Source: Escherichia coli (GTDB lineage: Bacteria; Pseudomonadota; Gammaproteobacteria; Enterobacterales; Enterobacteriaceae). From it: 64,000 nucleotides of DNA. Below are positions 43,401 through 46,400 of the stretch, in pieces (within the stretch, counting starts at the first letter, position 1; each line of letters opens with the position of its first letter). The stretch lies in NCBI RefSeq assembly GCF_036507355.1, contig NZ_AP027877.1, one strand, 5' to 3'. Position numbers: made by a program.

Positions 43401-46400
43401 GTGAATAATGCCTCCATCATTACGAAAAGCCGTTGCTGCTGCTATTGGTGGCGGAGCAATTGCTATAGCATCAGTGTTAATCACTGGCCCAAGTGGTAAC
43501 GATGGTCTGGAAGGTGTCAGCTACATACCATACAAAGATATTGTTGGTGTATGGACTGTATGTCACGGGCATACAGGAAAAGACATCATGCTCGGTAAAA
43601 CGTATACCAAAGCAGAATGCAAAGCCCTCCTGAATAAAGACCTTGCCACGGTCGCCAGACAAATTAACCCGTACATAAAAGTTGATATACCGGAAACAAC
43701 GCGCGGCGCTCTTTACTTGTTCGTTTACAACGTGGGCGCTGGCAATTTCAGAACATCGACGCTTCTTCGCAAAATAAACCAGGGCGATATCAAAGGCGCA
43801 TGTGATCAGCTACGTCGCTGGACATATGCTGGCGGTAAGCAATGGAAAGGGCTGATGACTCGCCGTGAGATTGAGCGTGAAGTCTGTTTGTGGGGGCAAC
43901 AATGAGTAGAGTAACCGCGATTATCTCCGCTCTGGTTATCAGCATCATCGTCTGCCTGTCATGGGCTGTTAATCATTACCGTGATAACGCCATGACCTAC
44001 AAAGAACAGCGCGACAAAGCCACATCCATCATCGCTGACATGCAGAAGCGTCAACATGATGTAGCAGAACTCGACGCCAGATACACAAAGGAGCTTGCTG
44101 ATGCTAACGCGACTATCGAAAGTCTTCGTGCTGATGTTTCTGCTGGTCGTAAGTGGCTGCACGTCAAAGCAGTCTGTCCGGACAAGCATAAAACCACCGC
44201 CGCCTCCGGCGTGGATGATGCTTCCAGCCCCAGACTTACTGACACCGCTCAACGGGATTATTTCGTTCTCAGAGAGCGCATCGAAACCATAACTAACCAA
44301 TTGAATGGCCTGCAAGAATATGTGAGATCACAGTGTTCATATTAGAAAAGTCTTATCATAAGATTTTTGTATATGGATGCATTATGTCTCAATACGCTCA
44401 CGTTGCTTTAATCGCTTATCATTTGGTGGCTGATAGCTCAATGACTCCTCGTGATGCATGGGATGCAGCTATCGCAGAGGTTACAGAAAGCGAATCGTCA
44501 AGAAAGAAGATATGCCCAAGGGCAACATTTCTCGCCCTGGCGGATAGCGGTTACCTGAAGAATGTAAAACCACTGCATGGGGAGAAAAAGGGCGGTAAGT
44601 TGTACCAAAGGGCAATTGAAGTTGCGAATCTGATTCTTGATTTACCCGGAATCAGTAAAGCTGAATTGGTTGATAAAACTGGTTACAAAGACAGGCAAGG
44701 GTCTTATGACCTGATTCTCGCTCTGTATCATCATGAGCAACTCCAGCGATCGGAATAATTATCCCAGCATCAGTGTCAAAAATAGGCAGTGATACGCTAT
44801 TTTCCTGAAAATACTTTACTAACATTTTATGAGAATTATCCTAGTAATGTGTTTATTTAAAAGGAGTTTGGGTTTATGAAAATTCTCTGGGTCATCAGTC
44901 TTTTGTGTAGTGCTATTGGATTTATTGAAGGAATCCTCGGGGTTTTCGGTGCTCAGAGTGCTCCACAACAGGCTGCAGGTGCAGCAATGGGAGTAGCATG
45001 GGCAGTTATTCCATATTGTATTTGTCGTGCTATCCAACAATTGCGCCCTCGAGAAGTCATTATTAAAAAGGAAGAATGACCAGATCTTATCCGGTGTTTT
45101 TTCTGTCTAAGCCTCGCGTCGCGGGGCTTTTTATTGGAGCCAGCATGCCACCACGAACACCAAAAGCCTGCCGTGTTCGCGGCTGCCGCCATACCACAAC
45201 TGACCCGTCAGGCTATTGCGAAAGCCACAAAAGTGAAGGCTGGAAGCAATACAAGCCGGGCCAGTCCAGACACCAGCGCGGTTATGGTTCGAAATGGGAT
45301 GTTATCCGTGAACGTGTGCTCAAGCGTGACAAAGGACTGTGTCAGTTATGTCTGCGTGGTGGTGTGGTACGTGAGGCGAAAACCGTTGACCACATCATCC
45401 CTAAAGCGCATGGCGGCACTGATGCCGACAGCAATCTGCAGAGCCTGTGCTGGCCGTGTCATAAGGCGAAGACGGCCCGTGAACGGTTGAAGTAAGAACC
45501 AGTTCCCACTGCCAGAGGGGAGGGGCGGGTCAAATCCCTGTGACCTGACGTCTTCCGGACTGCCCGCCCCATCGTTTTTTTATACCCGCGAAAAATGAAA
45601 TTTAACCAGGAGTGCCGCATATGGCTGGAACGGCGGGGCGTTCCGGGCGTCGCCCCAAGCCAACGGCGCGCAAGGCGCTGGCCGGAAACCCCGGCAAGCG
45701 AGCCCTGAATAAAGATGAACCTGTTTTTACGCCCATCAAAGGTGTTGAGCCACCGGAGTGGTTCGCTGAAGAAGATCTCCCTCTCGCCACGATCATGTGG
45801 CAACTGACAACCAAAGAACTCTGCGGTCAGGGCCTGCTGTGCGTGACTGACCTGGCGGTACTTGAGCGGTGGTGTGTGGCCTATGAGTTCTGGCGACGTG
45901 CCGTGAAAAATATTGCCAGACAGGGCAACACCATCACCGGTGCAATGGGCGGTATGGTCAAAAATCCTGAGCTGACCGCCAAAAAAGAACAGGAGTCCGA
46001 GATGAGCAGTACGGGGGCAATGCTCGGACTCGACCCCAGCAGCCGCCAGCGTCTGATTGGCCTGGCGGGGCAGAAGAAAGCCACTAACCCGTTTCTGAAA
46101 ATTATCGAATCATGAGCCGGAAATCTTACCCCAACGTAAATGCTGCCAATCAGTATGCCCGGGATGTCGTTCGCGGAAAGATTGTGGCCTGCCAGTTTGT
46201 GATTCAGGCCTGCCAGCGCCATCTTGATGACCTGATGGCGGAAAAAAGTAAGTCGTTTCGTTACCGCTTCGACAAGGACCTGGCTGAACGGGCCGCCAAA
46301 TTTATTCAGCTGTTGCCGCATACCAAGGGTGAGTGGGCATTCAAACGGATGCCCATCACGCTGGAGCCGTGGCAGCTCTTTGTGATCTGCTGTGCGTTTG

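Follow-up and report, generated by a model that had tools for sequence, protein, structure and literature searches.

In a window of 64,000 nucleotides (nt) of Escherichia coli DNA (contig NZ_AP027877.1), by which we mean the whole stretch analysed, positions 44384–45079 hold two small open reading frames, ORF1 and ORF2, within the late region of a lambdoid, SfI-like prophage (about 43.2–49.3 kb). We lean towards reading them as two independent passengers that stand outside the lysis and packaging machinery of the phage, with ORF2 as a candidate moron whose exclusion function is a guess and ORF1 as a presumed accessory of phage–host conflict. Comparison of phage loci identifies ORF2 as a mobile leader–gene–terminator cassette common to many unrelated Enterobacterales phages, and profile matches place ORF1 as a divergent, phage-borne branch of the DUF6979 family. 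Two passengers at the junction between lysis and packaging genes are ordinary for such a slot. A sequence-only reading of the window had proposed two genes at these coordinates, one for a soluble protein of about 125 residues and one for a 67-residue protein with two transmembrane segments; both ORFs are found there, ORF1 matched by Pfam and PHROGs and ORF2 by PHROGs, and the Prokaryotic Genome Annotation Pipeline (PGAP) annotates both. The elements of the interval are the following.

44384–44758, plus strand: ORF1, 124 residues, Pfam DUF6979 (PF22399) and phrog_5039.
44783–44812, plus strand: alternative promoter-like pair TAGGCA-18 nt-GAAAAT, directly upstream of CTTTAC.
44814–44819, plus strand: CTTTAC leader element, a conserved upstream sequence.
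44815–44820, plus strand: -35-like hexamer TTTACT, with a 16-nt variable spacer behind it.
44837–44842, plus strand: -10-like hexamer TATCCT.
44861–44866, plus strand: Shine-Dalgarno sequence AAGGAG, 9 nt before the ORF2 ATG, read from the sequence.
44876–45079, plus strand: ORF2, 67 residues, phrog_12304.
45109–45134, plus strand: predicted intrinsic terminator, AAGCCTCGC-GTC-GCGGGGCTT followed by TTTAT (hairpin 45109–45129).

The ORF2 cassette can be followed element by element. ORF2 reads from the ATG at 44876 to the stop ending at 45079, behind a non-coding leader of about 60 nt that is kept whatever gene precedes it and that consists of CTTTAC, the 16-nt variable stretch, TATCCT, (A/T)GGAG and the start codon. 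Among 56 distinct upstream sequences, CTT[TC]AC is present in 48 and the longer pattern TTTAC-N17/18-AT[CT][CA]T in 41, with a spacer that varies and hexamers that stay constant. Since a sigma-70 promoter would be expected to show constant hexamers on either side of a changing spacer, we infer that the leader carries a putative sigma-70 promoter. The alternative pair takes the form TAGGCA/CAGGCA-16/18-GATAAT/GAAAAT; about 19 of the 56 sequences have it as their best hexamer pair, and it is less widely kept than TTTACT/TATCCT. At the ribosome-binding position, (A/T)GGAG is retained in nearly all cassettes.

The other end of the cassette is marked by a GC-rich hairpin and T-run 20–45 nt past the ORF2 stop, detected in 56 of 64 distinct contexts, compared with 18% of 611 control ORFs from the same loci under the same detector. 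The stems following ORF2 homologues comprise at least five different sequences, and RNAalifold gave no consensus for the terminator alignment, in which the divergent hairpins fall out of register; for this reason hairpins were detected sequence by sequence and compared with the control set. An Rfam scan of 44200–45700 produced sub-threshold chance matches only.

Two side observations concern the sequence upstream of ORF2. Many cassettes (loci L034–L055, L010 and L076), the window copy not being one of them, carry a near-perfect palindrome, CAGGCATTCACTGA(G/A)TGCCTG, about 25–50 nt upstream of CTTTAC, which may serve as an operator, mark the edge of the cassette or be a terminator of the upstream gene that lacks a T-run. 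In the window, GATACGCTATTTTCCT in the spacer between ORF1 and ORF2 (44791–44806) resembles GATACGCTCTTTCCT in the leader of HK97 gene 15 (L168, 173–187) with one mismatch and one indel, a likeness that may be chance or a trace of a shared moron junction.

The mobility of the cassette is seen in its surroundings. Of 80 viral loci fetched, 78 were usable; their neighbouring genes were clustered and the cluster representatives annotated with Pfam, yielding 65 distinct architectures, distributed as follows.

Lysis genes upstream and terminase downstream: 31 architectures.
Terminase downstream only: 13 architectures.
Lysis genes upstream only: 9 architectures.
Within a tail operon: 5 architectures.
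Unclassified: 7 architectures.

The cassette thus lies after lysis genes, before terminase, or both, in 53 of the 65. The lysis genes it accompanies include Rz and DUF2514 spanins, holin families 2_1, 2_3, 3_1, 3_7 and 8, and lysozyme, GH19 and CHAP endolysins, and the packaging genes are of three kinds (Nu1 with GpA, DUF1441 with GpA, and HNH with Terminase_4 and the large terminase subunit, TerL). Such varied partners imply that it is tied to no single lysis or packaging system. Some copies are located beside the tape measure gene, in the slot between chaperone and tape measure that HK97 gene 15 occupies; the gene for a tail protein with an SLT domain precedes the homologue in Edwardsiella phage Edno5 and in a Yersinia prophage, and a Morganella homologue resides in an island carrying a primase gene. 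A word-indexed search returned 45 homologues at 52–97% identity from Escherichia/Shigella, Enterobacter, Kluyvera, Pantoea, Rahnella, Ewingella, Yersinia and Morganella. Within E. coli the cassette is rare, being found in 51 of 5,426 complete genomes, and all but one of these copies are at least 99% identical.

As a side observation on the copies in lambda-like tail operons (L087, L090, L092–L094, L097 and L098), the next gene encodes a 175-residue protein with an N-terminal signal peptide (for example L093, 5198–5725) and is followed by the tape measure gene. The same copies use a differently placed -10-like hexamer, in the arrangement TTCACA-17-TAGGAT.

The ORF2 product matches phrog_12304, a family with no annotated function, over its full length (expectation value, E, of 2.1e-44; residues 1–67 on profile positions 1–67 of 67). 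Its first helix (about residues 3–24) is strongly hydrophobic, with a hydropathy peak of 2.2, and its second (about 32–53) is rich in alanine and glycine and peaks at 1.5, so that the two transmembrane segments of the sequence-only reading recur here as a predicted topology. The AlphaFold model is a helical hairpin (residues 2–24 and 29–56) with a predicted local distance difference test score (pLDDT) of 87.7. The charges, Lys2 at the N-terminus, a neutral turn and five lysine or arginine residues in the C-terminal tail, favour an N-in/C-in hairpin, and we therefore describe ORF2 as a predicted inner-membrane hairpin of that orientation. GxxxG motifs are formed by Gly15/Gly19 and Gly35/Gly39.

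Conservation within the family is uneven. The invariant motif SAPQQAAGAAMGxAWAVIPYC covers the turn, which is predicted to be periplasmic, and helix 2, and helix 1 varies; correspondingly, differing non-synonymous sites make up a fraction (pN) of 0.04 in loop and helix 2 versus 0.24 in helix 1. The median ratio of non-synonymous to synonymous substitution rates (dN/dS) over 47 distinct coding sequences is 0.066, with synonymous sites near saturation, and by this ratio ORF2 is under strong purifying selection. A 73-codon antisense ORF on the minus strand (44819–45040) overlaps ORF2, is longer than it and misleads naive longest-ORF calling; the substitution pattern backs the plus-strand ORF2 frame over it.

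Searches aimed at a known identity for ORF2 were negative. The bor-type lipoprotein that the sequence-only reading had suggested for this slot finds no counterpart: a lipobox (L-[AS]-[GA]-C) is absent, the S-L-L-C at residues 8–11 ends in a cysteine (Cys11) that the homologues do not keep, and the Bor family was not matched. No holin family was matched in Pfam or PHROGs at E values up to 0.1, and the hhalign probability against the resident S21-type holin is 0.1%. The PDB sequence-profile search came back empty, and weak matches to T4SS_pilin (E 0.059), PycC and Rv2732c were rejected as compositional.

ORF1 reads from the ATG at 44384 to the stop ending at 44758. No 19-residue stretch of the protein exceeds a hydropathy of 1.05, and it therefore lacks a transmembrane segment, in agreement with the soluble protein proposed earlier. 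Pfam DUF6979 is matched at E 2.6e-28 and 99.1 bits (cut-off 27), with residues 1–120 on profile positions 1–126 of 127, and phrog_5039 at E 8e-69. At 124 residues, ORF1 has the family's make-up of a single domain (about 125–135 residues) with a K-x-C-P-[RK]-x-[AT]-F-L core; the core residues K42, C44, P45, F49 and L52 are present, the core reads KKICPRATFLALADSG where the DUF6979 consensus has KKGCPKNAFLGLCEEG, and a C-terminal NGQMDVV motif is weaker. By these matches ORF1 is a divergent member of the family. The AlphaFold model is all-helical, with seven helices and a pLDDT of 95.4, and a BFVD fold search with it was empty; there is no convincing structural relative, and the confident fold does not point to a function. 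A PDB sequence-profile search returned caspase-4 noise only, PADLOC-DB v2 gave no defence model match, and ORF1 has no signal peptide and no Bor family match in Pfam.

ORF1 begins 38 nt after the Rz stop and no terminator follows it, and for these reasons it is probably transcribed as part of the late transcript. As read here, ORF1 is cargo with no recognisable promoter or terminator of its own, and hence not a demonstrable moron.

The family to which ORF1 belongs is large. Searching with a single sequence gathered 235 clusters at the 50% identity level, and searching with a profile gathered 862 proteins; a genome scan located members in Paenibacillus, Acidobacteria, Bacteroidota, Proteobacteria, Chloroflexi, Verrucomicrobia, Spirochaetes and archaea including Methanoculleus. 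Judged by this spread across bacteria and archaea, DUF6979 is not phage-specific. The earlier proposal of small accessory genes in a slot that gathers cargo was right for both genes, and it has positive support for ORF2, whose cassette is found in many different phage backgrounds. Nearly all members are single-domain proteins of 123–135 residues with a near-invariant K-x-C-P-[RK]-x-A-F-L-G-L-C-E-x-G core.

Genomic neighbours were analysed in 75 of 80 fetched loci. No conserved partner gene emerged from these 75, the biggest neighbour cluster having three members. Among 30 tight same-strand neighbours scanned, 13 have restriction- or defence-type domains, namely SNF2 with Mrr_cat, GmrSD, SNF2_assoc, KAP NTPase, HNH (three), HEPN, SIR2_2, HIRAN, PIN, HSDR_N and Methylase_S. 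In Paenibacillus (L161, 1–4858) two DUF6979 paralogues lie within 4 kb, one overlapping the stop of a DUF5677 gene and the other divergently oriented to a gene for an Mrr_cat nuclease, with an AAA_15/AAA_21 ATPase gene downstream of it, in what looks like a defence island. The Methanoculleus copy is inside an integrated element. DUF6979, a cytoplasmic and all-helical family, recurs in mobile elements and next to nucleases and helicases of restriction or defence type. One further member (P0099) has a 50-residue C-terminal extension and a PIN gene 2 nt downstream, an antitoxin-like layout that resembles the VapB–VapC pair.

In phages, DUF6979 genes occupy two slots, directly after Rz (as here and in the lambda-like 4C10, 4A7 and mEp460) or directly before the holin gene, both of them late-operon cargo slots, and nearby genes include ParDE, HicAB and colicin/pyocin-immunity genes. 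As a side observation, an Enterobacter-type prophage has an S-type pyocin/colicin DNase gene (821 residues) with its immunity gene between Q and holin (L004, 1302–4035), and in a sister prophage (L005, 3379–4035) a DUF6979 gene stands in the place of the DNase gene with the immunity gene retained. A further phage lineage (L014, 6001–6940) likewise has a colicin/pyocin-immunity gene behind DUF6979.

Whether ORF1 and ORF2 form one functional unit, a cytoplasmic partner with its membrane effector, is decided by this distribution. The two genes are adjacent on the same strand and are always paired within the SfI-like lineage, in 51 E. coli genomes as well as in 16 viral contigs, as such a unit would be; however, this pairing is confined to one near-identical lineage. 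DUF6979 lies directly upstream of ORF2 in 12 of the 65 architectures, all of them SfI-like, and the other 53 have a different upstream neighbour. Conversely, at least 17 other phage loci and all 75 genome loci analysed have a DUF6979 gene but no ORF2, and the conserved leader of ORF2 has its start in the spacer behind ORF1. The neighbour data show two independent genes that co-occur only in the SfI lineage; a single unit is very improbable, and a two-gene system was rejected on the grounds that co-occurrence is limited to one lineage.

Several known systems help to place ORF2. The moron definition, associated with Hendrix and Juhala, is reportedly due to Juhala et al., who drew it in 2000 from phages HK97 and HK022. 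T4 Imm and P22 SieA, which are unrelated to ORF2, are membrane morons that block entry of the superinfecting genome. As described for HK97 and HK022 (PMC3594210), a moron is an added gene that separates neighbours which adjoin each other in related phages and that recurs in otherwise unrelated genomes; it brings its own promoter and terminator, differs in base composition from the genes around it and is expressed from the repressed prophage. HK97 gene 15, between chaperone and tape measure genes, is a membrane superinfection-exclusion moron with its own annotated terminator (PMC3594210). ORF2 is moron-like in its location between modules that are adjacent in related phages (it is missing from other lambdoid phages carrying DUF6979), in its lower GC content, promoter-like leader and predicted terminator, and in its occurrence in unrelated phage backgrounds; its promoter is putative, and its expression in the repressed prophage is a prediction. 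ORF2 and the HK97 gene 15 product (gp15) are both small inner-membrane proteins, predicted as such for ORF2, encoded by cassettes of promoter (or promoter-like leader), gene and terminator. They differ in that gp15 has 62 residues and, by eye, one hydrophobic stretch near its N-terminus, compared with the predicted two-helix hairpin of ORF2, and in that ORF2 in the window is at the lysis–terminase junction whereas gene 15 is in the tail operon. Lambda bor and DLP12 borD share with ORF1 and ORF2 both the neighbourhood, after Rz and before cos, and the accessory character. The bor gene is read from the other strand, and its product is an outer-membrane lipoprotein; neither ORF1 nor ORF2 has a lipobox or Bor match.

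These likenesses lead to a mechanism for ORF2 that we put forward as a proposal. Driven by the leader promoter TTTACT-16-TATCCT, ORF2 would be transcribed in the lysogen as well. Its product would insert into the inner membrane as an N-in/C-in hairpin, might oligomerise through its GxxxG motifs, and would use the periplasmic turn and helix 2, both invariant, to touch a conserved component of the envelope or of the phage. In this way ORF2 would block genome entry of superinfecting phages, as HK97 gp15, T4 Imm and P22 SieA do. We favour such an exclusion function because of the moron anatomy, the recurrence of the cassette beside tape measure genes and the analogy with gp15, Imm and SieA; that ORF2 is a lysogen-expressed inner-membrane exclusion factor acting at the DNA-entry step is nevertheless offered tentatively. 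For ORF1, we suggest transcription with the late operon and action as a small accessory protein in phage–host conflict, most likely by binding nucleic acid or a nuclease, with regulator, antitoxin-like module and anti-restriction factor as candidate roles. The more specific idea that ORF1 is a DNA-binding regulator or antitoxin-type module, built of two helix-turn-helix-like halves and controlling cargo or host genes, is possible, and we hold it with considerable doubt.

A number of observations weigh against the combined reading of ORF2 as a moron with an exclusion function and of ORF1 as a conflict accessory. The hexamers TTTACT/TATCCT score 8 of 12, which in this AT-rich sequence is not above shuffled sequence, and a consensus promoter scan made no call at the leader. 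Tail-operon copies have no terminator, and in Edno5 the homologue gp19 (L249, 4477–4707) starts on the stop codon of the 'lytic tail protein' gp18; it looks translationally coupled to that tail gene and, given the overlap, is probably expressed late and not from a promoter of its own. Helix 2 is marginally hydrophobic, which leaves the two-pass topology a prediction. The hhalign alignment with gp15, a YebO-like protein, has a probability of 1% over 7 columns, and PADLOC-DB v2 returned for ORF2 only a non-significant PycC match (E 0.026, 12 bits); with no similarity to gp15 or to the PADLOC models, exclusion is proposed by analogy. The majority of ORF2 copies lie right behind lysis genes, a position that would fit a lysis role too. 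For ORF1, part of the family motif is lost, ALAD replacing GLCE, and the apparent enrichment in defence-type neighbours (13 of 30) is qualitative.

The position behind lysis genes bears most directly on the possibility that ORF2 is an accessory of the lysis cassette that acts in the membrane at lysis, for example as an antiholin or second holin-like protein, or by regulating the S21-type pinholin or the endolysin. Lysis genes are present within five genes upstream in 40 of the 65 architectures, ORF2 is on the late-operon strand, and with class II holins such as pinholin S21 it shares small size, two predicted helices, a charged C-terminus, GxxxG motifs and a place near lysis genes, its predicted N-in/C-in topology being in keeping with theirs; its weakly hydrophobic, Ala/Gly-rich helix 2 also resembles a membrane-leaving helix. 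Yet ORF2 has no profile similarity to holins, including the resident one, and no dual-start motif. It accompanies five holin families and three endolysin types, is always placed after the spanin genes, set off by its own leader and followed by a terminator, and occurs also in tail operons and the Morganella island, away from lysis genes. We therefore consider a lysis role distinctly unlikely. A membrane-damaging toxin, of type-I-toxin-like or abortive-infection kind, that would depolarise the membrane when triggered and thereby stabilise the prophage or kill infected cells, would be consistent with a short hydrophobic hairpin with glycine-zipper-like GxxxG motifs, with carriage on mobile cassettes in prophages and islands, and with the antisense ORF and antisense terminator-like hairpins that overlap ORF2. 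The strong Shine-Dalgarno sequence and promoter-like leader, accompanied by no recognisable antitoxin gene or conserved antisense RNA, would however make a constitutive toxin lethal, and constraint that is highest in the periplasmic turn and helix 2 argues for a specific contact and not for generic membrane disruption. With the PycC match also non-significant, a toxin is quite improbable.

Decay or mere annotation noise, with no function in either or both of the ORFs, might be suspected from the omission of ORF2 in the SfI annotation and from the low GC content of both, but this is hardly credible given the dN/dS of ORF2, the full-length match of ORF1 to a curated Pfam family with a model of pLDDT 95, and the intact state of both genes in the 51 E. 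coli genomes. A structural or packaging role was likewise rejected, as neither gene has the corresponding homology and both are dispensable in related phages. The profile and fold searches (Pfam, PHROGs, NCBIfam, PADLOC, PDB sequences and folds) retrieved no structural phage protein and no phage homologue of known function. The view that no function can be assigned by eye also stands: family searches yielded function-unknown families only, and both are already catalogued as such (DUF6979, phrog_5039 and phrog_12304). Our literature search found no paper on DUF6979/PF22399, phrog_5039, phrog_12304, the RefSeq proteins WP_001544773.1 and WP_000699783.1 or the ORF2 motif, and the parts of the SfI genome paper reached by a targeted term search mention neither gene.

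The flanking genes agree with the placement between lysis cassette and packaging genes given by the sequence-only reading, with Rz/Rz1 upstream and HNH, the small terminase subunit (TerS), TerL and portal downstream.

39712–40089: antiterminator Q.
40245–40769, minus strand: lipocalin-family gene.
40962–41921: YbgA/2-thiouracil-desulfurase and DUF1722 gene.
42264–43004: AraC-type regulator, very AT-rich (GC about 0.3).
43066–43087: terminator-like hairpin after the AraC-type gene.
43193–43408: S21-type holin, from gene prediction with Pfam/PHROGs.
43408–43905: phage lysozyme.
43890–44345, plus strand: Rz spanin gene, Pfam Phage_lysis (E 2e-39) and phrog_13, end of the lysis cassette.
44095–44292, plus strand: Rz1, embedded in Rz.
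45145–45495, plus strand: HNH endonuclease gene, the right neighbour, which opens the packaging module.
45612–46115, plus strand: P27-family TerS, followed by TerL and portal.

PGAP starts Rz at 43902. The HNH start is corrected here to 45145 because a mechanical ORF from 45076 would cross the terminator hairpin at 45109–45129. GC content is 0.36–0.44 over 44700–45099, as against 0.50–0.53 in Rz and 0.53–0.63 in HNH and terminase, and that of ORF1 and of ORF2 is below that of the neighbouring genes. The 821 bases spanning both ORFs are 99.9% identical to Shigella phage SfI, whose record leaves ORF2 unannotated, and 100% identical to an E. coli Yu5 prophage, in which PGAP gives the order Rz, DUF6979, hypothetical protein, HNH, TerS, TerL. 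In the identical E. coli region PGAP names ORF1 'DUF6979 family protein' (WP_001544773.1) and ORF2 'hypothetical protein' (WP_000699783.1).

Two more places in the prophage deserve mention. The interval between Q and holin (39712–43090) holds three extra genes, listed above, where phage SfI has two transfer RNA genes, and looks like another cargo cluster. In the gap between TerL and portal, a 60-residue ORF (47857–48039; 'protein YmfR' in PGAP) shows two hydrophobic stretches by eye, and its product is likely another small membrane protein within the packaging module.

As it stands, the outcome is mainly ordinary prophage cargo together with two annotation fixes, the ORF2 gene missing from SfI and the HNH start at 45145. 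A bolder version, in which ORF2 founds a new family of cassette-borne exclusion proteins acting at the tape-measure/inner-membrane step and DUF6979 is a captured component or regulator of restriction/defence islands, we regard as rather unlikely. If exclusion by ORF2 is true, a compact 67-residue family would join the few proteins known to stop phage DNA at the inner membrane, and its invariant loop and helix 2 would mark the contact surface. A link of DUF6979 to restriction/defence islands, if real, would give a biological context to a widespread family whose predicted fold is confident but unmatched.

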